64,000 bases of DNA from an uncultured Actinomycetota bacterium (GTDB lineage Bacteria > Actinomycetota > Actinomycetes > Actinomycetales > CAWJMD01). The notes below the pieces were generated by a model that ran no database searches, was not told the DNA's origin, and saw only the letters and a list, made by a program, of their open reading frames with translations. The stretch covers positions 113,058 to 177,057 of the forward strand of contig CAVVQA010000010.1 in the NCBI GenBank assembly GCA_963750285.1, in the 5' to 3' direction. The number at the start of each line of letters is the position of its first letter. The stretch's first letter is position 1. This document shows positions 1,434 to 64,000 of this stretch, one piece after another. Both the position numbers and the translations under genes were made by a program.

Positions 1434-2906
<1,473 letters not shown>

Positions 2907-2921
2907 TCGCTCGCTGATCCT

Positions 2922-3476
2922 GTGCCACGCGGCACCTACCACCTGGCCGGCCGGCCCGAGGCGTTCTCCTGCGCCCCGGGACCGGCCGGTTGGCGTTACG
3001 TCTCCTCGACGCTGGACCTGGCCTGCGACAGCGCCTTCCGCGCCGTCCGGTTCGTCGTGACCGGTGAGGGCGGGCGGTCCGTGCGCGGTGGTGGGCTCCG
3101 GCTGGACGACGGCGCGCCGGTCCTGGTCTGGGCTCCCCCGACGACCCCGGCGCCGAGCGCACCACCGCGGCCACGGGTGTGCTCACCGCGTCGCCCGGGT
3201 CGGTGGTGGCGCTGCTGCGGTCGGTCTCGCCGCCCGGTGAGGCCGCGGCCGGCGCCGACCTCGAGGTGCTGCGGTTCGGGCCCGACGCGCTCGCCGGCCT
3301 GCGGGTGCGGTTGCGGGTCGCCCGGGTCGGTGCGCGTCCGGCACGACGCGCCGGACGGCGAGCTGCTCGACGAGACCTGGACCGTCTCCGACGTCGACAC
3401 CGGCCTGGTCAGCGAGATCCACCTGGCCGGCGACGTCGTGCTGCACGCCACCGCTGGCGTCCTGGACGACGAGATC

Positions 3477-3488: not shown

Positions 3489-5357
<1,869 letters not shown>

Positions 5358-5372
5358 TCGCTCGCTGATCCT

Positions 5373-5979
5373 GTGCCACGCGGCACCTACCACCTGGCCG
5401 GCCGGCCCGAGGCGTTCTCCTGCGCCCCGGGACCGGCCGGTTGGCGTTACGTCTCCTCGACGCTGGACCTGGCCTGCGACAGCGCCTTCCGCGCCGTGCG
5501 GTTCGTCGTGACCGGCGAGGGCGGCCGGTCCGTGCGCGGTGGTGGGCTGCGGCTGGACGACGGCGCGCCGGTCCTGGTCTGGGCTCCCTCCGACGACCCC
5601 GGCGCCGAGCGCACCACCGCTGCCACGGGCGTGCTCACCGCGTCGCCCGGGTCTGTGGTGGCGCTGCTGCGGTCGGTCTCCCCGCCCGGTGAGGTCGCAG
5701 CCGCGGCCGACCTCGAGGTGCTGCGGTTCGGGCCCGACGCGCTCGCCGGTCTGCGGGTGCGGTTGCGGGTCGCCCGGCTCGGGTGCGGTCCGGCACGACG
5801 CGCCGGACGGCGAGCTGCTCGACGAGACCTGGACCGTCTCCGACGTCGACACCGGGCTCGTCAGCGAGGTCCACCTGGCCGGCGACGTGGTGCTCCACGC
5901 CGCCGCCGGCGTCCTGGACGACGAGATCGAGCTGGCCGCCCTCGACGGCCCGCCGACGCTCTTCGGGAGTTGCAACTAG
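5373..5979 (+). CDS. Hypothetical protein (copy 2 of the gene downstream of ahcY), frameshifted
   Basis: MPRGTYHLAGRPEAFSCAPGPAGWRYVSS... is identical in its N-terminus to 2922-3488. The C-terminal part ...VVLHAAAGVLDDEIELAALDGPPTLFGSCN* is read in the 5539-5979 frame. In the ORF track the 5373 frame runs on through low-GC DNA into the next gene. Confidence 0.4.
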
Positions 5980-6105
5980 GGCGAACGGAGGATGCGGAGC
6001 GAATGAAAGTCGCAGATCCTGCAGGTTCATCGAGTCGAGCCAGCGTCCGGGAGATCTGCGTGTTGTTCTCAACGAGTCAGTTCTCGAAGCCATCTCGTCG
6101 CATCA

Positions 6106-6980
6106 TGGCCGCGACTGTGGCGGCACTCCTCGGAGCGGGCACCGTCCTCGTCGGCGCGCTCGCCGGTCCTGCGGCAGCGGCTGCCGACGTCACAGCTCCG
6201 GTGATCAGGACGAACGCGGCAGCGGCGTTCTTGACGGGCGGGGTGATCAGTCAGACCGTCGCCAGCGACGACTTCGACCGCTACAGCACGATCCCCATGG
6301 TCGTGAGGTGGACGGTTACGGACAACAGCAGCAGGATCTGCGCCTTCCAGATCTACGCCTTGACGAGCTCCGAGGCGACGTTCGAGCCAGAGGAGTACGG
6401 ACGCCTCCTGCTCTCCGTCCAAGCGCCGCGGGCGACTCCCTACGCGGACCAGGTCGTCGACTCGGTCATGGAGTACGACGGTGCACTCGGTGGCAGCGAC
6501 GACTCGCACCAGGGGTGGCACCTGAAAGCCCAGGACTGCACCGGAAACACCACAACGATCGACATCCGGACGAAGTACGAGACGGTCGTCACCCAGGAGG
6601 ACGGGCGCGACTCCAGCGAGCTCGTGGATCCTGGGACGATCTCCTACGGCGGCGCGTGGGGCACGACGTCATGCACCTGCGCGTCGTGGGGCGCGATGCG
6701 CAACACGTCGGCGAAGAACGCGAGCGTCACGTTCACCCGCACGTACGACCGCGACGACCACGTCGCCCTGGTGATGGCCAAGGGTCCGGGCCGCGGCAAA
6801 GCGGCTGTGTACGTCGATGGCGTCAAGGTCGCCACCGTCGATACCAACGCCAGGGTCAACACGAACCGGGTCATCGTGTTCGACCGGTGGATGACGGCCG
6901 GCACCCACACGGTCAAGGTGGTCAACCTCGCGACTGCTGGGCATCCGAGGATCGACCTGGACGCGGTGCTGTCGAACTAG
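6106..6980 (+). CDS. Secreted hypothetical protein, member 1 of a three-paralogue family (conserved C-terminal ~110-aa module)
   Basis: ATG ~6106 gives MAATVAALLGAGTVLVGALAGPAAAAADVTAPV, a Sec signal with an AxA site. Local GC is clearly lower than the surroundings. The C-terminal block ...WGTTSCTCASWG...ASVTFT...VYVDGVKVATVDTN...NRVIVFDRW..GTHTVKVVN...RIDLDAVL is shared with 57529-58347 and 58389-59318. Confidence 0.7.
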
Positions 6981-6991
6981 GGAGCCTCGGG

Positions 6992-8090
6992 TTAGCCCCC
7001 GGGCAGGGGTTCGACCTCGACGACCTGGCGGGTGCCGAGGGGGCTGGTCCACTCGTGGGCGGTCACGGTGCCGGTGCTGTTGGTGAGCGTGCGGCAGTGC
7101 CAGAGGGCGGCGGTCTTGTAGCGGTGGCACCGGCGCGATCTGGGGGACAGGTTCTGGACCGACGTCGGTCCGCGGGGGTGGGGGATGGTGTGGTCGAGGT
7201 CGCAGCGTGAGGCGGGGACGGAGCAGCCGGGGAAGGTGCAGACGGGGTCGCGAGCTCGGACGAAGTCCGCGATCTCGACCGTGGGCGTGTAGGCGTCGGT
7301 GTGGTGCCGCGGCTCGGGTTGCTTCTGCAGTGCACGCCGGGTCACTTGCGAGCAGAGCGGTTCTGGTCCAACCGTTCTCGGGCACCCGACCGATGCGGAG
7401 GAACCGGGTGAGGCGCCCGTCGCGGTCGGTGAGCAGGACGCAGGTGCTCGCGCCGCGGTCCAGTGCCTGGTCGGCGACGACGCGGGCGACGGCGGCGGTC
7501 ACGGGCACCGGTGACCCGTTGCCGCGGACCTCGCCGGTGCTGTGGCTGGTCGCGTCGTCGCTGGTCAGGGTGTCCAGGGTGATCACGACGCCGACCTCGC
7601 GCTGCACCCGACCCCCGGCCCGGCCGGCCGGGCCGGTGCCGTCGTCGCAGACGGCGTCGAACAGCAGGTCGAGCTCGGCCATGCCGCGGGTGCGTCCGGC
7701 CAGCTCGTCGCGGCTCAGCCCGCTGACGCGGGCCTGGCAGGTGGCGGCGATGGTCTGGACCAGCTCGGTGGGTCCGGTGACGGTCATCGTGGACAGGGCC
7801 GGGTTCTCCGGGTGCGTCCACACCGAGATCCCCGTGCGGCGGCGGACCTCGTCCCTGACCTGCTCCTCGTCGTCACGGCGGAGCGCGGCGACGGCGGTGG
7901 TGACCCGGCGGGTGAACCGCTCCGGGGTCGGCCCGTCCCACGGCCCCACGGTGCCGGTCCCGTCCAGCACCGGCGCCGGCAGCCCGTCCAGCACGACGGC
8001 CTCGACCTTGCGGGCCTGCCGGTCGGTCAGGTCGGAGGTGTGCTCGGCCATCGTCCGGGCACGGGCGACGTCGATCCGCCCGGCCTCCAA
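6992..8090 (-). CDS. HNH endonuclease of the DUF222 / REP13E12-like family, frameshifted near 7345
   Basis: The N-terminal DUF222-like region (8090 down to ~7345, ORF 6669-8090) continues in a different frame into a canonical HNH motif (6992-7345: CTFPGCSVPASRCDLDHTIPHPRGPTSVQNLSPRSRRCHRYKT). Confidence 0.6.
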
Positions 8091-8496
8091 CGCGCCCAGG
8101 GTGCGCGGTCAGCCTGGTGCACAGCGCCCGGGCCAGGATCACGTCCTGCTCGGCCCAGTAGGTGCTCAGCCCGGTCGCGGCCGCGACCTCAGCCGCGGCC
8201 TGCACGTCGAGGTCGTGCTCGGTGATCCGCCCGCACCCCAACGCATCACCCCGCGAGGCGTCACCCAGCCGGTAGGACTCCTGCGCGTGCACGTGCCGGG
8301 TGATCGCCCAGACCCGCCGCAGGTGCTCGGCCTGGTGCGCGAACCCGGCCAGCGAGTGCGCCCGCAGGTCCGCGACCAGCGCCGCACCGCGCCCCGATCC
8401 GTGATCCCCCGACCTCATGGAGAAAGGCTAGACGCCACCACTGACAGTTGTTTGCCGTCGGATGCCTGTCGACGTCCAACACGAGATGATGAGCCG

Positions 8497-8967
8497 ATGG
8501 CGACAGTGCACCTGTTGGTCGGGCTCAACGCGTCCGGCAAGACGACGCACGCCGAGCGGCTGCAGGAGCAGGAGCCGGCCGTCCGGTTCACGCTCGACGA
8601 GTGGGTGCTGCGTCTGTTCGGCACCGCCTACGACCACCCCGGCTACCCCGAGCAGGCTCAGCGGTGCCAGGACCTCATCTGGGACCTCGCGTGCCAGGTT
8701 CTGGCTGCCGGGACCGATGTCGTCCTGGACTGGAACCAGTGGAGCCGGAAGCGGCGCGACCACTGGCGCGACCGGGCGGACGCGCAGGGGCACGCGGTGG
8801 TCGTCCACTACCTGCCGGTGCCGGTGGAGACGGCGATCGCGCGCGCCGCGCAGCGGGAGAGCGGCGGCCGCCACCACGACCTCGACGCTGCGGCGGTCCG
8901 GCACCTGGCCCTGTTGCTCGAGGTGCCGACCGAGGACGAGGGCAGCGAGCTGCGGATCAGCCGGTGA
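8497..8967 (+). CDS. P-loop ATPase/kinase (AAA_33-like ATP-binding protein)
   Basis: MATVHLLVGLNASGKTTHAERL has a Walker A motif. It is about 156 aa and is the 3' part of ORF 7207-8967, in frame. Confidence 0.55.
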   Translation: MATVHLLVGLNASGKTTHAERLQEQEPAVRFTLDEWVLRLFGTAYDHPGYPEQAQRCQDLIWDLACQVLAAGTDVVLDWNQWSRKRRDHWRDRADAQGHAVVVHYLPVPVETAIARAAQRESGGRHHDLDAAAVRHLALLLEVPTEDEGSELRISR

Positions 8968-9860
8968 CGCGGACCGCGTCCAGGACGGCGAGCCGCACCG
9001 CCTCGGCGGCGGCGGCCTGCACGGTCGCCACGCCCATCACCCGCTGGGCGCCGGGCCAGCCGGCCTCCGACCTCGGGAGCCGCTGCGGCAGAGTCGATCT
9101 CGCCGGTCGCGAGGACGAAGACGGTGTCGCCGTCGCTCAGCGTGTGCACCGGGTCGATCGACCGCGCGAGCCCGTCGTGGCCGGCGCCGGCGGCCCGGGT
9201 CGCCTCGGCGACGTCGAGCCGGGCGTTCGTCACCACCACGGCCAGGGTCGTGTTCAGCGCCGCGTCGCCAGCCGGAGGAGCAGCACCACCCCCCACCACC
9301 CCCGCCGCGTTCACCACGGCCAGCGCAGCCACCAGCACGCCGCCCGGGAGCCGCACGAGCCCGTTCCCGACGCCGCCGGGCGCCGACCCGCGAGCCGTCC
9401 GCGCACCCGTCCCGGCGCCGACCGCACCCCGCGGGAGCGAGCCCGAGACAGCCGAAGCGGCTGCGGCGTGACCCATCTCGGCATCGGGTCGCGCGTCCCA
9501 GTCACCACCGCGCCCGAGGTCGAAGATGCACGCCGCGGGGACGATCGGCACCACGACCGGACGCCCGTCGTCGCGGACGCCGACCGGGAAGCCCAGACCC
9601 TGCTCCTCGCACCACCGCTGCACGCCGTGCGCCGCCACCAGCCCGTACGCCGACCCGCCGGTCAGCACCACGGCGTCGACCGTGTCGACGAGCGTGCCGG
9701 GGGCGAGGGCGTCGGTCTCGTGCGTGCCCGGACCGCCACCCCGCACGTCGACGGCACCGACCGTGCCGGGCGGCGGCACGACCACGGTCACCCCCGTCAG
9801 CCAGCCGTCCCCGGTGCGCTGCGCGTGGCCCACCCGGACGCCGGTCACCTCGGTGATCAC
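8961..9860 (-). CDS. P1/S58 (DmpA-type) aminopeptidase family protein, frameshifted near 9040-9070
   Basis: ORF 8808-9860 has DmpA-like motifs (AVDVRGGGPGTHETDAL, TGGSAYGL, DGDTVFVLATG). The true C-terminus MGVATVQAAAAEAVRLAVLDAVRVTG* is in another frame and ends ~8961. Confidence 0.55.
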
Positions 9861-53045: not shown

Positions 53046-53413
53046 GGGGGTGACTGGTTTCGACGTCGGATGTCGAACTAGGGGAAGCGGGTCGAGGACG
53101 CGGGGTTATCTCGTAAACGCCCTCCGCAAAACACAGGTGCCGATTCCAATCGCACCGACTTCGCCCTCGCCGCCTGAGCGAGCCGCGATAGTCCGTCAGC
53201 CCGGGAGTGCTCTCGACCCGGTAGCTGGCGTCAGCTAGAGAGCCACTGCTGTCAGCACTCGTCGTCGGTGCTGACGGGACTTCTAGGCGACTGGGCCCGT
53301 CGGCGGACATGCTCGCGTGAGCGCCGGGGCCGAGAAAAGCCGTAGCGAGCTGCACCCGGAGAAGCCCTAGGGGTACGACGACGGACGGGAGTTCGATTCT
53401 CCCCACCTCCACA
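53046..53413 (+). ncRNA. ssrA: tmRNA (ssrA), 368 nt; tag reading frame encodes ADSNRTDFALAA*
   Basis: The 5' end GGGGGTGACTGGTTTCGACGTCGGATGTCGAACTAGGGGAAGCG and the 3' end GGACGGGAGTTCGATTCTCCCCACCTCCACA closely resemble mycobacterial tmRNA (tRNA-like T-arm and acceptor). There is an internal resume codon GCC followed by the tag ORF ending ...GCCCTCGCCGCCTGA. It lies 2.7 kb downstream of smpB. Confidence 0.9.
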
Positions 53414-53472
53414 GTCACGCAGGACGAACCCTGCGCCGCGGACAGCGGCGCAGGGTTTCTGCTGTCTCCCGC

Positions 53473-57528: not shown

Positions 57529-58347
57529 TTGGTCAACCACTATGAGGCAGCCGTGAAAGTTCGACCGTTCGCTGTCGCGGTCGCATCGATGCTGCTCGTC
57601 TCAGGAGTAGCCGTCGTGGGGCCGGCGTACTCGACGCCGGACACCACCGCGCCGCAGGTGAAGCTGGCTGCGGCTGCGTTCGTGAAGAAGGGCGCGGCGA
57701 TCGGCACCGACGCTAACCGGTCCTTGCCGGCGAACATCACGTGGAAGACCTCCGACCCGTCCGGCATCTGCGAACAGTCGATGGAACTCATTAAGTACTA
57801 CACCGACGGTAGTGACGACGGCGATGATCCTGGCATCGTCGAGAGGCCCCCGCTGACCGCGGCTGCCCGGCAAGCCACAGTCAGATTCGGGCTGGAGTAC
57901 TACCAGTACCTGGTCCGACTTCGCGTCAGCGACTGCGCGGGCAACGTGACGAGCGCGAATTGGGCGTACTACCCGTACGAGTGGTCGCCGGAGTGGGGCC
58001 CGAACCGGCCGTACCGCGACTTCACGACGACCGGCTCGTGGACGTCCGCGCGATGTGCGTGCTGGACGGACGGCGCCGTGATGACGTCCAGCCAGCCCGG
58101 CGCCCGGGCCCGCTTCACGTCGACCGTCAACTCCGGCGTCGCCATCGTCGGGAACACGGCGGCCAACCGGGGCAAGGTGCGGATCTGGGTGGACGGCAGA
58201 GCCGTCACGACGCTCGACCTCAAGGGACCCACCGTCAACCGCACGGTCATCTTCGCTCAGCGGTGGCCTGACTACGGCACGCACACGATCGAGCTCGAGG
58301 TTGTCTCGGGACGTGTCGACCTCGACGCGATCGTCAGCATCGACTGA
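57529..58347 (+). CDS. Secreted hypothetical protein, paralogue family member 2
   Basis: A signal peptide, lower GC, and the C-terminal module ...WTSARCACW...ARFTSTV...VRIWVDGRAVTTLD...NRTVIFAQRW..GTHTIELEVV..RVDLDAIV. Confidence 0.7.
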   Translation: MVNHYEAAVKVRPFAVAVASMLLVSGVAVVGPAYSTPDTTAPQVKLAAAAFVKKGAAIGTDANRSLPANITWKTSDPSGICEQSMELIKYYTDGSDDGDDPGIVERPPLTAAARQATVRFGLEYYQYLVRLRVSDCAGNVTSANWAYYPYEWSPEWGPNRPYRDFTTTGSWTSARCACWTDGAVMTSSQPGARARFTSTVNSGVAIVGNTAANRGKVRIWVDGRAVTTLDLKGPTVNRTVIFAQRWPDYGTHTIELEVVSGRVDLDAIVSID

Positions 58348-58388: not shown

Positions 58389-59318
58389 GTGCGCCTCCTC
58401 CGACGCCCATCACTGCCGTCCTTCCTCGCCGGCGCCGTCTGCGCCACGGTCTTCGTCGGGGTACCGGCCGTCGCGGCAGTGGTCGGCTCCGACCAGAACC
58501 CCGCGGTCTTCGACGGCACCACGCCGTCGCTCATCGTTCAGCCGGCGCAGTTCTCCATTGGTACAAGCATCGACTCCGCTTATGACTCATGCTTCGGCGG
58601 CCAGTACGGCTACCAGCAGGTGCCGGTGAAGCTCAGGTGGGACGCGACCGACAGCACCGCTGGCGTCTCTTCTTTTGATGTCTACGAGGCAGGAAACGGC
58701 GGCGAAAACGGCTCGGAACTACTCCTCGACCACACCAGAAGCAACACCATCGACGTCCTCACGAGCTCCTACGACGGAGCCTGCGGCGGCGGCTGGGAAC
58801 CCGACCTGTGGTGGGTCACCGCCCGCGACTTCCGCGGAGCAACCGCCACGTCCTCCACGATCGCAGGAGCCCTGGACGTCTGGGACGACACCGGGACCTC
58901 GTACTCAGAGCGGCACGGCGATCTGGCGACGACCCGGACCGGTACGTGGTCGACGTCGCGGTGCGCCTGCGCCAACTTCGGGTCCACGAGCTACACCACC
59001 GCGAGAAACGCCTCGATCACCTACACGATCACGGTCGACAAGCCCGGACGCACCATCGCGATCGTCGCTCCCAAGAGCAGCACCCGCGGGGTTATGAACA
59101 TCAGCGTGGACGGCGCGACAGCACAAGCCGTGAACACGAACGCCACCACCACGATGAACCGCGTCATCGTCTGGCAACGGACCCTCGGCGCCGGTACGCA
59201 CACCGTAAAGGTCACCAACGCGGGAACGTCGGGCCAGAGCCGGATCGACGTTGACACACTCATGCTCGGCCCGGCCTGGACTGGCGAGGTGCGACTCAAC
59301 CTGTACGACCAGAACTAG
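58389..59318 (+). CDS. Secreted hypothetical protein, paralogue family member 3
   Basis: A GTG start after RBS ggagt gives VRLLRRPSLPSFLAGAVCATVFVGVPAVAAVVG. The module reads ...WSTSRCACANFG..ASITYTIT...MNISVDGATAQAVNTN...NRVIVWQR..GTHTVKVTN...RIDVDTLML. Confidence 0.7.
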   Translation: MRLLRRPSLPSFLAGAVCATVFVGVPAVAAVVGSDQNPAVFDGTTPSLIVQPAQFSIGTSIDSAYDSCFGGQYGYQQVPVKLRWDATDSTAGVSSFDVYEAGNGGENGSELLLDHTRSNTIDVLTSSYDGACGGGWEPDLWWVTARDFRGATATSSTIAGALDVWDDTGTSYSERHGDLATTRTGTWSTSRCACANFGSTSYTTARNASITYTITVDKPGRTIAIVAPKSSTRGVMNISVDGATAQAVNTNATTTMNRVIVWQRTLGAGTHTVKVTNAGTSGQSRIDVDTLMLGPAWTGEVRLNLYDQN

Positions 59319-59616: not shown

Positions 59617-60144
59617 GTGGCAGTGCGCTACTTCACGATCGACTACGAACGCCATCTTCTGCACCCGGACCTGATCGTCCGCGGCCCCCGCAGCGTCGAG
59701 GAAGGTGGGGAATGGACGGAGGCGACATGGTTCAACGATGGCTTCGATGCCCTGGACTACGGACTCGAGATCGTGACTGGCTCAGGTGCTGTCTTCTCGT
59801 TGACCTGGGATCCCCCGGGCGATCGCGAAGGCATCGGCTTGCAGCCGGTTCCCTTGCTCGGAACCGGCGTCCGTAGTGATGCGGACGTAGCGACTTGGTC
59901 GGTGGAGGACCGCTCCGGCACTTGGGCGCACTTGGTGGGGACCGCGATTACTGGTCTTGACTTGCACTACCGCCCTTGGGACGCCGATCAAGGGAGCCTG
60001 TGGTGTTCGCGGATCACATTTCGCGGTGAGCGTGGCCGCGTGGAGGTCGTGATGGGCGACTCCGAGGACGGGCGACTGGTCCCGTCGGCAGACAACGTCG
60101 CAGTGCTGCAGGCGGGCAGAACCCTACCTCGGTGGCTCGCATAA
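59617..60144 (+). CDS. Hypothetical protein (175 aa)
   Basis: A clean ORF with moderate GC and Trp/Asp-rich composition. No family recognised. Confidence 0.4.
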   Translation: MAVRYFTIDYERHLLHPDLIVRGPRSVEEGGEWTEATWFNDGFDALDYGLEIVTGSGAVFSLTWDPPGDREGIGLQPVPLLGTGVRSDADVATWSVEDRSGTWAHLVGTAITGLDLHYRPWDADQGSLWCSRITFRGERGRVEVVMGDSEDGRLVPSADNVAVLQAGRTLPRWLA

Positions 60145-60305
60145 CGGGTCTCCCGGACGAACTTGATGGCCAAGATCAGAGTGGCAAGCAGGCGGCGGAT
60201 GGACGTGCCCCGACCAAAGCCCGGACTGTGCTGGACGTGCTCAACGTGGGCCCCCGCGTGCCTTGGTCGAAGCACCACGATGCCTTGCAGGCATGGCGGT
60301 CGCCG

Positions 60306-60644
60306 CTAGAGGTCCAAGAGCAGCGCCAGAGTCTCGCGGACCTCGCCGAGGATGACGGGGCCCACATTGCCTAGGCGCTGATGAATGCGTGTCGTGGCTA
60401 CCGAGCGCACGTGCTGACACTGCGCCGCAGACCTGGCCGTCAGGCGATTGCTTGGATCGGGGTCGACCGCAATCTCCGTGCTGCTCTTGCGGATCGTTCT
60501 GGTCAGCGGCACGACCTGCACGACGTTGGGGCCACCGTTGAGTACTCGCGCAGCGGTGACGACGATGGCCGGGCGATGCATCCCGGCTTCGCTTCCGGCC
60601 GGTGGGCCGAGGTCGAGCTCGACGACGTCACCCGGCGTCAGCAT
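60306..60644 (-). CDS. mazF: MazF/PemK-family toxin (type II TA)
   Basis: MLTPGDVVELDLGPPAGSEAGMHRPAIVVTA...VVQVVPLTRT... Confidence 0.8.
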   Translation of the reverse strand: MLTPGDVVELDLGPPAGSEAGMHRPAIVVTAARVLNGGPNVVQVVPLTRTIRKSSTEIAVDPDPSNRLTARSAAQCQHVRSVATTRIHQRLGNVGPVILGEVRETLALLLDL

Positions 60645-60825
60645 CGAGCCAGGCCGTCTCTTCCTCCGTGAGTGCGTCGGCGAGGTCGCTGGCCATGTCG
60701 TCCTGGCGGAGCGCGCGCAGAGCGTTGCGAACCGTCGCATCGATCGTTTCGTGCCGTGCGGCCGCCAATCGGGTCACGCGTGCGTGGGTATCCCTGCTGA
60801 CGCGGATCGTCGTTGTCTCGGCCAT
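60628..60825 (-). CDS. mazE: Ribbon-helix-helix antitoxin (MazE/CopG-like); overlaps the mazF start
   Basis: MAETTTIRVSRDTHARVTRLAAARHETIDATVRNALRAL. Confidence 0.7.
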   Translation of the reverse strand: MAETTTIRVSRDTHARVTRLAAARHETIDATVRNALRALRQDDMASDLADALTEEETAWLDADAG

Positions 60826-60918
60826 GCACCAACCGTAACTCGTGTAGACCGAATCGTCTACAGAAGGTCTTGGTGGTGCTCCTCGTATGACTCAGGGCGC
60901 CTGACAGGCGAAAGTTCG

Positions 60919-61830
60919 TCAGACGCCGGCGACGTAGGCGGTCAGGAAGTGGACGCCGTGTCGGTCGAGGTTGCCGCGGGCGCGGTCGTAGTGCTGGGTG
61001 GTGCGGGGGTCGGCGTGGCGGGCGAGGATCTGGGCGTCGCGCAGGGGGACGCCGGCGTCAAGGGCGTTGGTGATGGCGGCGTGCCGAAGTGAGTGGGGGC
61101 TGATGTGCCGGGGGATGGCGGCGGCCTTCGCGATCCGGGTGACCATGCGGTAGGCGTCGCGGCGATCGATCGGCTTGCCCGACAGCGGCCGCAGGACCAG
61201 CGGGCCGGTGGCGCGCTGGCCGCGGCAGGCCTCCAGGACGCGCAGGACCGGCACCGTGATCGGCATGGTGGCGGGCTTGTTGCCCTTGCCGACCAGGTGC
61301 AGGACGCGGTGCCCGCGCAGGGTGTCGGCGTAGTCCTCGATCCGCACGGCGCACGCCTCGGAGGCGCGCAGGGCGTTGATGCCGAGCAGGTACGCCAGGG
61401 CGCCGTGGTGCACGGTCAGGGTCTGGGCGACCTGAAGGAACCGGATCAGCTCGAGCCGGTCCAGGCCCTGGGTGCGGGACTCGTCGCGGTGGACCTTCGG
61501 CAGGCGGGCGTAGACGGCCGGGTCGGAGGGGATGAGGCCGTCGATGTGGGCGAACCGGAAGTAGCCGCGGACGGCGTGCATGGAGGTGACGACGGAGGAG
61601 TCCATCAACCCCGCCTCGCCGAGGTGGCGGATGTAGAGCTCGACGTGGGCTCGCTGGATCCCGACCAGCGGGTCCAGGCCGTGGGTCTGGCACCAGGTGA
61701 ACCACCGAGCGAGCTGGAAGCTGTACAGGTGGTGGGTGCGCCCGGCGTACCGGGCCAGGTAGGAGACCGCCGCCAGCTGAGCGGTCGACATCGTCGCCGG
61801 CTCGTACGGCAGCAGCGTGGTCGTGGACAT
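60919..61830 (-). CDS. Tyrosine-type site-specific recombinase/integrase
   Basis: Catalytic residues are spread across ...HSLRHAAIT...LARHADPRTTQHY (R..H..R..Y). Confidence 0.85.
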   Translation of the reverse strand: MSTTTLLPYEPATMSTAQLAAVSYLARYAGRTHHLYSFQLARWFTWCQTHGLDPLVGIQRAHVELYIRHLGEAGLMDSSVVTSMHAVRGYFRFAHIDGLIPSDPAVYARLPKVHRDESRTQGLDRLELIRFLQVAQTLTVHHGALAYLLGINALRASEACAVRIEDYADTLRGHRVLHLVGKGNKPATMPITVPVLRVLEACRGQRATGPLVLRPLSGKPIDRRDAYRMVTRIAKAAAIPRHISPHSLRHAAITNALDAGVPLRDAQILARHADPRTTQHYDRARGNLDRHGVHFLTAYVAGV

Positions 61831-61976
61831 GGGGTCACCTCGCGCGGCGACCTGGGCCGGGCTCAGACCACGCTCGCCGCTGACGCGGCTGGCACCTGGA
61901 ACGCACGACGCTAGACGGCCGCAACCTCGCCGCACGCTCTGCAGGCGGCGGAAGGGGGTAGGTGGGGGAGCGAGGT

Positions 61977-62387
61977 TCAGGCGGTCAGCCGCTCAAGCGG
62001 TTGTCCGGTGATGCCCGCGATGAGCTCGAAGTCTTTGTCCTGGTGCAGCACGGTGAGTCCTGCGAGCTCGGCGACGGCGGCGATGACCAGGTCGGGGATT
62101 GATGGCGCGCGGTGGTGACCTTCCTTGGCTAGCAGCAGCTGGACTTGCACAGCGCGGTCCTCGGTGGAGGGGGTGAGGTACTCGACCGGCATCGACGACA
62201 TCGGCGGGCGGGTGAGCAGCGTGTGGGCGTCCTGCCAGCTACGGGCGGAGTAGCCGACCTCGAGTCGCGTTACGGTGGTGACTCGGACGAGGCCCCTTTC
62301 GATCCGCTCGGCCCAGGTTGCTGCGTCCGGGCTGGCGCCGAGCCGTACCAGGGCGGACTTGTCGGCGAGCCATTGCGTCACCGCCAC
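61977..62387 (-). CDS. vapC: PIN-domain toxin VapC
   Basis: 136 aa. PIN-like, with acidic residues D/E spaced as expected (LADKSALV..., D..D at the C-terminus). Confidence 0.7.
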
Positions 62388-62599
62388 GCGTCGCCCATCA
62401 CCTTGGGCTCGCTTAAGTCGCCAGCCAGATCTCCGAAGCTCGACAGGTCGTCCACCGAGACGGAGTCGCCAGTGGAAGCGGCGTCGGCTGCCAGCCGCCG
62501 GCGGATGTACTCAACGCGGGACAGGCCCAACCTCGCTGCGTGCGCGTCCACGCCCGCAAGGACCGCGTCGGACAGGTCTCGGATCAGAACGTCAGCCAT
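62378..62599 (-). CDS. vapB: VapB-type antitoxin
   Basis: [36 protein letters not shown]. It overlaps vapC by about 10 nt. Confidence 0.65.
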
Positions 62600-62928
62600 G
62601 GGACCACCTCCAGATATCTGACGATATCATGGGGATACATGACCGCGCGCCTACGCCGCTCGCGGCGGTAGGACTGTGAGGATCGCCAACGCAGTCTGAA
62701 GGTGCTGGGCTGTGGTCGGTGACCGCGAGCGTGACCCCCGGTATGACTGGCTTCGTGCCTTGCTGCGACCTGTCCGCTCGTGGTCGCCGGCCCCGGCCCG
62801 GTTGGAGGAGCTGGCCTGATCAGGAGCTTGACCATGCGGCGTTAGCGGCGCCGGATGTGTCTCATCACAGTCCTGCCGAGCCTCCGTCCCGGACCGGAAC
62901 CACGTCCCGTCCGGCGAAGGAGAGAACG

Positions 62929-63989
62929 CATGAACAGTCTGACCGATCTGCGCGAGGTCGTCGATGTCGTCATCGGCGTCGACACCCACGTCGGGACCCA
63001 CTCCGCGGCCGTGGTCGACGCCGCGACCGGTGCCGTCCTGGACGAGATCACCGTCGAGGCGACAGCCCGCGGCTACGCCGAGCTGGTCGCGTTCGCCGAC
63101 AACCACCCGAGGTTGCGGGCGTGGGCGATCGAGGGGACCGGCAGTCATGGCGCCGGCCTGAGTCGTCACCTGCTGAGCATGTCCGAGCTGGTCATCGAAC
63201 TGGACCGCCCGAAGCGGGTCGCGCGTCGCCACGGCGCGAAGTCCGACGCGCTCGACGCGATCCGCGCCGCGCGTGAGGCGCTGGCCCGCCCGCGGCTGGG
63301 GACACCACGCTCGGGCGGTGAACGTCAAGCATTGTCAGTGCTGTTGGCCGCTCGACGCTCGGCGGTCAACGCCTCCACCGAGGCCCAGCAGCAGCTGTTT
63401 GGTCTGATCGTGGCAGCACCCGAACCCGTCAGGTGTCCGGTTCCGCGGGCAGAAGCTCGCCGCGATGCTGAACACCGCCGCGAAGCTACGCGTGCACCCG
63501 TCCTGGGACGTCGAGACGACCAGCACGGTGGTGGCGCTGCGGACCCTGGCCCGTCGGGCGCACGCGATGCTGAAGGAAGCACGCGAGCTGCAGAAGGCGA
63601 TCGTGGCGATCATCCGCAGCTGGCGCCCGGACCTGCTCGAGCAGTTCGGTGTCGGGCCGATCGTGGCCGCGACGGTGCTGTGCGCGTGGTCTCACCCTGG
63701 CCGGGTCCACTCCGAGGCCGCGTTCGCGATGCTCGCCGGCGTGGCGCCGATCCCTGCGAACAGCGGCCAGGTCACCACCCGGTACCGGCTCAACCGCTAC
63801 GGCGACCGCCAGCTCAACAACGCCCTGCACACCGTGGTCCAGAGCCGGATCCAGTACCAGCAGACCACCCGCGACTACGTCGCCCGCCGCACCGCCGAGG
63901 GCAAGACCGGCCGAGAGATCAAACGCTGCCTGGCCCGCTACGTCGCCCGCGACCTCTACCGCCTACTCGAGGCCCCGGCCACGGCTTGA
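62929..63989 (+). mobile_element. IS110-family transposase gene (DEDD), one frameshift near 63430
   Basis: RBS aaggagag. MNSLTDLREVVDVVIGVDTHVGTHSAAVVD is the IS110 N-terminal DEDD domain. The C-terminal half is in frame 63465-63989 (...RYRLNRYGDRQLNNALH...). Confidence 0.8.
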
Positions 63990-64000
63990 CGAAGCATAGG

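Follow-up and report, generated by a model that had tools for sequence, protein, structure and literature searches.

Three genes for secreted-type proteins with a common C-terminal block are found in the window, by which we mean the whole 64,000-nucleotide stretch of DNA that was analysed. They raise the question of whether they belong to an undescribed system spreading horizontally with mobile elements, as a first-pass annotation had suggested, or are proteins of a recognisable kind whose role can be proposed from their architecture. In the six-frame translation of the window, the family HMM detected exactly three genes, with scores of 341, 254 and 164 bits (the last for copy 2, W2), in agreement with that annotation. 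The C-terminal motifs that it had listed, W-x-T-x-x-C-x-C, VDG, NR[VT]VI, GTHT and R[IV]D[LV]D, are also present.

Copy 1 (W1) is an intact ORF of 306 aa on the forward strand (6060-6980), and its GTG at 6060, six bases 3' of a GGGAG Shine-Dalgarno sequence, is a better start than the in-frame ATG at 6105; the product of 306 aa is also equal in length to the closest homologues. W2 (57553-58347, forward strand) encodes 264 aa from a GTG with GAGG five bases upstream. This GTG is a likelier start than the TTG at 57529, and the resulting leader, which reads MKVRPFAVAVASMLLVSGVAVVGPAYS/TPDTTAP, is of the textbook type. For copy 3 (W3; 58389-59318, forward strand), which encodes 309 aa from a GTG with GGAG six bases upstream, the same 309-aa product in NCBI/ENA records supports the start at 58389. 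Of the starts given earlier, 58389 was therefore retained on its Shine-Dalgarno sequence and the public record, whereas 6106 and 57529 give way to 6060 and 57553. Lack of homologues, combined with poor coding statistics, had been named as a point that would argue against real genes; given the GC3 of 0.85-0.88 and the conserved homologues, 103 of which were found for W1, their coding status is beyond doubt. Upstream of the three genes, neither a riboswitch or other RNA (the tmRNA described below is the sole Rfam match in the window) nor a sigma-70-like promoter was found.

The N-terminal regions had been regarded as divergent, but they are homologous as well. W1 aligns with W3 over residues 75-304 (BLASTP E=8e-32) and with W2 over residues 14-305 (E=3e-18), and the match between W2 and W3 is confined to the C-domain (E=5e-11). 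Judging from these alignments, the three genes are real paralogs with full-length homology, and not unrelated proteins with a common C-terminal module. The identity among the three copies is 25-35%; they are therefore old full-length paralogs and not the products of recent spread.

Sec signal peptides had been proposed for all three proteins, and this proposal agrees with the leaders, which we judged by pattern inspection and hydropathy and not with a trained signal-peptide predictor. The leaders (aa 1-42 in W1, encoded by 6060-6185; aa 1-27 in W2; aa 1-33 in W3) contain two to three K/R residues, no acidic residue and a stretch of 25-28 residues without charged or polar-amide residues, and an A-x-A-like small-residue cleavage motif lies directly before D-x-T-x-P. 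By the same inspection, W1-W3 display the positive n-region, hydrophobic h-region and A-x-A-type site of a Sec signal peptide. The same leader layout recurs across 177 family members, and on this pattern both W1-W3 and the family are predicted to be secreted via Sec. Twin-arginine export and lipoprotein anchoring were rejected as family traits, as RR-like motifs and lipoboxes occur in 31 and 6 of the 177 members, respectively.

The AlphaFold2 model of full-length W1, built from a 43-sequence alignment, is all-beta after the leader (pLDDT 86.9, pTM 0.82), and the blocks of the C-domain reach pLDDT 94-99. The N-domain (about aa 43-185; 6186-6614) adopts an Ig/FnIII-like, seven-strand-type beta-sandwich fold, and the C-domain (about aa 190-306; 6627-6977) folds as a beta-jelly roll with two sheets, of the kind that spans some 120-130 residues. 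The corresponding jelly rolls lie at about aa 158-264 in W2 (58024-58344) and about aa 182-295 in W3 (58932-59273), where a tail of ~15 aa follows. Foldseek comparison of the W1 C-domain with the PDB returned matches at probability 1.0 (E 2e-6 to 5e-4), with TM-scores of 0.60-0.68 when normalised to target length. These matches include the xylan-binding module MiXBM (7ehg; 0.60-0.63), CBM36 (7ay3 and 1w0n, 0.66-0.68; also 1ux7), CBM35 (2vzp) and CBM6 (2cdp), both at 0.62-0.64, a further CBM6 (8j3x), and domains of the CBM type from modular xylanases and galactanases. Cry toxin domain III is also among the Foldseek hits. The earlier guess of a beta-sandwich with a lectin-like or carbohydrate-binding-like fold was thus right at the level of the model. 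The N-domain is similar to FnIII, MG and PKD domains of the adhesion type; in Pfam, one family member matches Big_13 (E=0.003), and no Ig model rises above threshold.

Sequence comparison leads in the same direction by a transitive route, since family members and tandem repeats match the CE2_N and CBM_35 models while the window proteins stay below threshold. None of the three window proteins reaches the Pfam gathering score of any CBM or CE2_N model. W3 matches CBM_35 at E=3.4e-4 (21.3 bits against a cut-off of 28) over model positions 16-119 of 121, W2 matches CBM_35_2 at E=0.0027 (18.2 bits against 23) and CE2_N at E=0.2, and the window proteins as a whole match CE2_N at E=0.02-0.2 (12.2-15.4 bits against a gathering score of 27.9). 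CE2_N is nevertheless matched by 24 of 43 family members at E<=0.1 (best E=1.2e-6), the C-domain repeats of multi-domain relatives score 42-127 bits (126.8 in one example) against the same cut-off of 27.9, and PF16990 CBM_35 appears in the precomputed annotation of four W3 relatives. According to an article that summarises work of Montanier et al. 2009, the N-terminal jelly roll that CE2_N describes in family-2 carbohydrate esterases is a domain of the CBM type and aids carbohydrate binding (PMC9487903). Searching the literature for PF17996 or CE2_N by name returned materials-science papers only. A Pfam match to "nec1" (E=0.012), which spans the signal peptide and the first part of the N-domain, was taken as noise.

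On the model and these links, the C-terminal block represents a diverged form of the jelly roll found in CBM6, CBM35, CBM36 and CE2_N. The first-pass annotation had put it forward as a novel module, to be judged less novel should a well-characterised domain match it with confidence, and the Foldseek probability of 1.0, the CE2_N matches in 24 of 43 members and the PF16990 annotations of W3 relatives amount to such a match. That the block could still be a genuinely new fold or domain without a characterised relative might be argued from the window proteins themselves: no Pfam, NCBIfam or PDB sequence match exceeds a curated threshold (the NCBIfam search gave noise only, and PDB sequence searches with W1 alone and with the full-length family profile gave nothing significant), and every named family member is labelled "hypothetical". 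We consider this scarcely credible, since the high-confidence model and the transitive links to CE2_N and CBM_35 refute it at the fold level.

The family itself is large and has no name. A word-index search found the 103 homologues of W1, the best with 66% identity; all named ones are labelled "hypothetical protein", and most are 270-306 aa long and belong to Actinomycetota from soil and metagenomes, Nocardioidaceae among them. Of 1.84 billion cluster representatives searched exhaustively with a HMMER profile, 10,754 were matched at E<=1e-3, 5,753 at E<=1e-10 and 654 at E<=1e-30. Among species-representative genomes, searched for related loci with a profile from 18 closer sequences, stand-alone two-domain genes were found in Actinomycetota MAGs and Nocardioides, and longer proteins that bear the unit mostly in Chloroflexia and Limnocylindrales. 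A single relative, 47% identical, is closer to W2 than the family at large. A metagenomic relative of 578 aa contains two complete family units in tandem, the second at residues 304-561 (HMM 25-282); it has no Pfam match and is the fused counterpart of the adjacent W2 and W3. What emerges is a large family, mainly from soil Actinomycetota, that is now recognised as a member of a well-known domain class.

The conserved polar positions of the jelly roll are W200, R245, D253, R270, H283, N289, R297, D299 and D301 (W1 numbering). In a 178-sequence alignment, W200 is conserved in 99%, G246 in 100%, D299 in 96% and D301 in 97% of the sequences, and W200, N289, D299 and D301 are, as far as sequence can tell, compatible with CBM-like sites for Ca2+ and ligand. 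In the same alignment, both cysteines of the N-domain pair C94/C160 are present in 130 sequences, a single one in 1 and neither in 47, W3 being without both; for the pair C205-x-C207 at the start of the C-domain, the corresponding numbers are 147, 0 and 31. The cysteines are thus gained or lost in pairs, which fits disulfides, or a common site, in an exported protein.

The module also recurs within larger proteins. The C-domain alone is present in up to 16 repeats in giant surface proteins, and Peptidase_S8, PPC, cohesin and fn3 domains accompany it. The whole Ig-like and jelly-roll cassette (HMM about 27-284) forms the C-terminus of multi-domain secreted hydrolases, whose N-terminal parts include Amidase_2 (N-acetylmuramoyl-L-alanine amidase), Peptidase_S8 (four cases), GH18, NAGPA phosphodiester glycosidase with Metallophos, and BNR/Sortilin repeats. 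As read from these domain architectures, the cassette behaves like a module that targets secreted hydrolases without itself being catalytic.

This pattern bears on whether the proteins might themselves be enzymes whose catalytic site, in the jelly roll or between the two domains, has gone unrecognised. The strict conservation of R245, D253, R270, H283, N289, R297, D299 and D301 and a weak Pfam match to a Diels-Alderase N-terminal domain (E=0.006) could be read in that way. However, CBMs, too, typically have conserved D, N and R residues where they bind Ca2+ and ligand, no SGNH (GDSL) esterase or other catalytic domain was found in the three proteins, the W1 model consists of two beta domains, and in the fusions the cassette follows catalytic domains that are already complete, in the manner of an accessory module. 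An enzymatic role is, in our opinion, highly improbable.

We therefore favour, with a probability of roughly 0.6, the reading that W1-W3 are non-catalytic, secreted two-domain proteins that bind an extracellular polymer, most likely a glycan. The leader would be removed, and the mature protein would begin at D-x-T-x-P with an Ig/FnIII-like beta-sandwich that usually carries one disulfide (C94-C160), followed by a beta-jelly roll of ~115 aa with the conserved C-x-C pair. The jelly roll would bind the extracellular polymer, most likely a cell-wall glycan or one from environmental biomass, and the Ig-like domain would serve as a spacer or scaffold. In their free-standing form, the proteins would act as secreted lectin-like binders, the stand-alone version of a cassette that other bacteria fuse to hydrolases. 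Both ligand binding and the glycan nature of the ligand are suggested by the modelled fold and the domain fusions. Several observations speak against this reading: the window proteins stay below the gathering scores of all CBM and CE2_N models, sequence searches of NCBIfam and the PDB yielded no significant match, the partners of the cassette include proteases, whose substrates are not glycans, and proteins that bind non-carbohydrate targets can contain a jelly roll of this superfamily as well, Cry toxin domain III being among the Foldseek hits.

The same fusions can be read differently, with the cassette serving as a module for cell-envelope retention or protein-protein adhesion that has these folds without being a glycan-binding CBM. 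Enzymes, or the module itself, would then be held on the surface of the producer or in a proteinaceous matrix. The C-terminal position on S8 proteases and on a muramoyl-alanine amidase is like that of many wall-anchoring domains, and the co-occurrence with cohesin, the long tandem arrays in giant surface proteins and the likeness of the N-domain to adhesion-type FnIII, MG and PKD domains point in the same direction. Nevertheless, in both structure and sequence the C-domain has its best matches in bona fide CBMs and CE2_N, and the two readings overlap, as a module that bound a glycopolymer of the wall would still be a carbohydrate binder. On balance, we regard an adhesion role as rather unlikely.

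Within the reading of secreted polymer binders, a more specific proposal is that the free-standing Ig-like and jelly-roll proteins would count in CAZy as a CBM family of their own, one whose ligand specificity is not yet described; we offer this tentatively, as a possibility with the odds against it. The ligand might be, for example, a bacterial or fungal cell-wall glycopolymer, bound at a site stabilised by the C-x-C pair. The proteins would then be secreted lectins of soil Actinomycetota that could, for instance, coat or compete for polymer surfaces, and the several divergent paralogs per genome might correspond to different ligands.

Is the family, in addition, carried by mobile elements? 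The lower GC content on which this suggestion was partly based is confirmed: the three genes have 66% GC against 73.5% for the window, and their GC3 of 0.85-0.88 compares with 0.93-0.98 in core genes. However, the gene lies below its flanks in GC in eight of eight relatives, by 1.4-6.1 points and whatever the context, and the lower GC is therefore a family-wide trait. About half of the deficit of the window genes arises at codon position 1 (0.56-0.59 against about 0.65-0.75), because of a composition rich in Thr, Ser, Asp and Gly, and the remainder reflects the modestly lower GC3.

An association of the family with integrase, HNH or toxin-antitoxin (TA) genes had been suggested, and no integrase, transposase, HNH or TA gene was present in any of nine neighbourhoods of stand-alone relatives. 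No neighbour or partner gene is common to the nine, and no second family copy was found within about 8 kb in the relatives, the W2/W3 tandem not being conserved. The 66%-identical homologue of W1 sits among purC and purSQL, the 73%-identical homologue of W3 adjoins hut genes, and the chromosomal position varies among relatives. In a Nocardioidaceae MAG (JAXLSN010000035.1, ~7001-7864), the family gene lies amid genes for HTH_3 with Peptidase_M78, ThiF, HIRAN/DUF2510 and Imm7, possibly a variable or defence-like region and the sole such case among the nine.

Within the window, W2 and W3 had been placed in an island associated with ssrA, alongside TA modules, an integrase and IS110. The mobile-type genes do lie about 0.3-5 kb away, in a cluster downstream of W3 (59617-63989, mixed strands, GC 64-72%). 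By Pfam, this cluster comprises, at 1-5 kb from W3, a MazF toxin (60306-60740, reverse), a XerC/D-like tyrosine integrase (60919-61935, reverse), a PIN toxin (61977-62387, reverse) with an RHH antitoxin (62378-62599, reverse) and a fragment of an IS110-family transposase (63465-63989, forward) that runs to the end of the window; an ORF of 175 aa with no assigned function (GC 64%, GC3 0.74) lies in the same interval. The placement in an ssrA-associated island is not supported within the window. The tmRNA gene (53046-53414, forward; ARAGORN, and Rfam RF00023 at 140 bits), whose tag peptide is ADSNRTDFALAA and which is followed by a hairpin at 53420-53464, lies 4.1 kb upstream of W2, and three ordinary genes with normal GC, for an oxidoreductase, a TetR regulator and a membrane protein, intervene. 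The integrase is 7.5 kb from the tmRNA and not adjacent to it, no repeat of the tmRNA 3' end was found in the window at up to 3 mismatches, the window contains no convincing flanking direct repeats (att), and no boundary of an element was located. An island with W2 and W3 on it could extend past base 64000.

W1, for its part, is convergent with a DUF222/HNH-like gene (6992-8418, reverse), which is not a family member and is spread over three frames in the window. It had been taken for a frameshifted endonuclease gene, probably wrongly. Its frame changes at 8105 (an extra G) and at 7349 (an extra C), and both bases are missing from two ENA contigs, independent assemblies of the same organism that are 99.4% and 98.2% identical to window positions 5932-8975 and differ from it by scattered single-base indels. 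Thus, the gene is probably intact and its frameshifts are artefacts of assembly indels. After repair, the protein has 474 aa and matches DUF222 (21.4 bits where 24.4 are required; E=1.8e-4) and HNH (E=0.11), both below threshold. Where the three assemblies were compared across W1, its ORF agrees with the two-of-three majority at every indel.

Similar irregularities are seen in nearby genes. The gene for AhcY (S-adenosylhomocysteine hydrolase; 3869-5368, forward) is broken into two or more ORFs, and a part of 4427-5368 is out of frame. As AhcY is a housekeeping gene, the split speaks for assembly indels rather than a pseudogene, and indels are probably the cause of the frame change. The gene directly upstream of W1 (5373-5979, forward) also seems to switch frame, from that of 5373 to that of 5539-5979, and its stitched product of 201 aa has no Pfam match. 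Beyond the HNH-like gene lies a gene for an AAA_33 or zeta-toxin-like kinase (8590-8967, forward; 2566-3036 in one of the ENA contigs), with an AAA_33 match at E=2e-12 and a weak Zeta_toxin match in Pfam. The window thus represents an indel-prone long-read assembly, and its frameshifted genes should not be taken as pseudogenes.

Taken together, an undescribed secreted or surface system that is carried by mobile elements and spreads horizontally appears very unlikely. The proximity of W2 and W3 to MazF, the integrase, PIN/RHH and IS110 in a stretch of 65-68% GC, the convergent DUF222/HNH-like gene next to W1, the reduced GC3 relative to core genes and the variable chromosomal position of relatives could be cited for it. 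Against these stand the nine relative neighbourhoods without mobile-type genes, the low GC of all eight relatives with about half of the deficit at codon position 1, the absence of an att repeat from the window and the low identity of the copies. No conserved partner genes were found, hence there is no "system", and each gene stands alone.

We therefore return to secreted polymer binders as the preferred reading. The family raises no new biological question and is not a mobile or defence-like system. If the proposed function is true, W1-W3 belong to a sizeable family, so far unannotated, of proteins that soil Actinomycetota secrete to bind polymers, and the same targeting cassette has been reused on proteases, amidases and chitinase-type enzymes of Chloroflexia. 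Its recognition would then be useful for annotation, as a Pfam or CAZy entry, and possibly for finding new binding specificities.

Among known systems, the families CBM6, CBM35 and CBM36 (Pfam clan GBD; 1w0n, 7ay3, 2vzp, 2cdp and 7ehg) are comparable to the C-domain in having the same jelly roll of about 115-130 aa and the same use as a non-catalytic appendage of secreted hydrolases. The present family differs from them in sequence, with identities of 13-18% and with the window proteins under every Pfam gathering score, and W1-W3 differ further in their C-x-C pair, their Ig-like partner domain and the lack of an attached enzyme in the window. The CAZy criterion for a CBM family is demonstrated carbohydrate binding. 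PF17996 CE2_N is the Pfam model most often matched by the family, above the gathering score on tandem repeats. In the CE2 esterases, however, the jelly roll is N-terminal and accompanied by an SGNH domain, whereas in W1-W3 it is C-terminal and no SGNH domain is present. The N-domain can be compared with the Ig-like, FnIII, MG and PKD domains (Big_12, Big_13 and the FnIII domain of Bacillus circulans chitinase A1, 1k85), from which it differs in its size of ~140 aa, its long insertions and a disulfide that is specific to this family.
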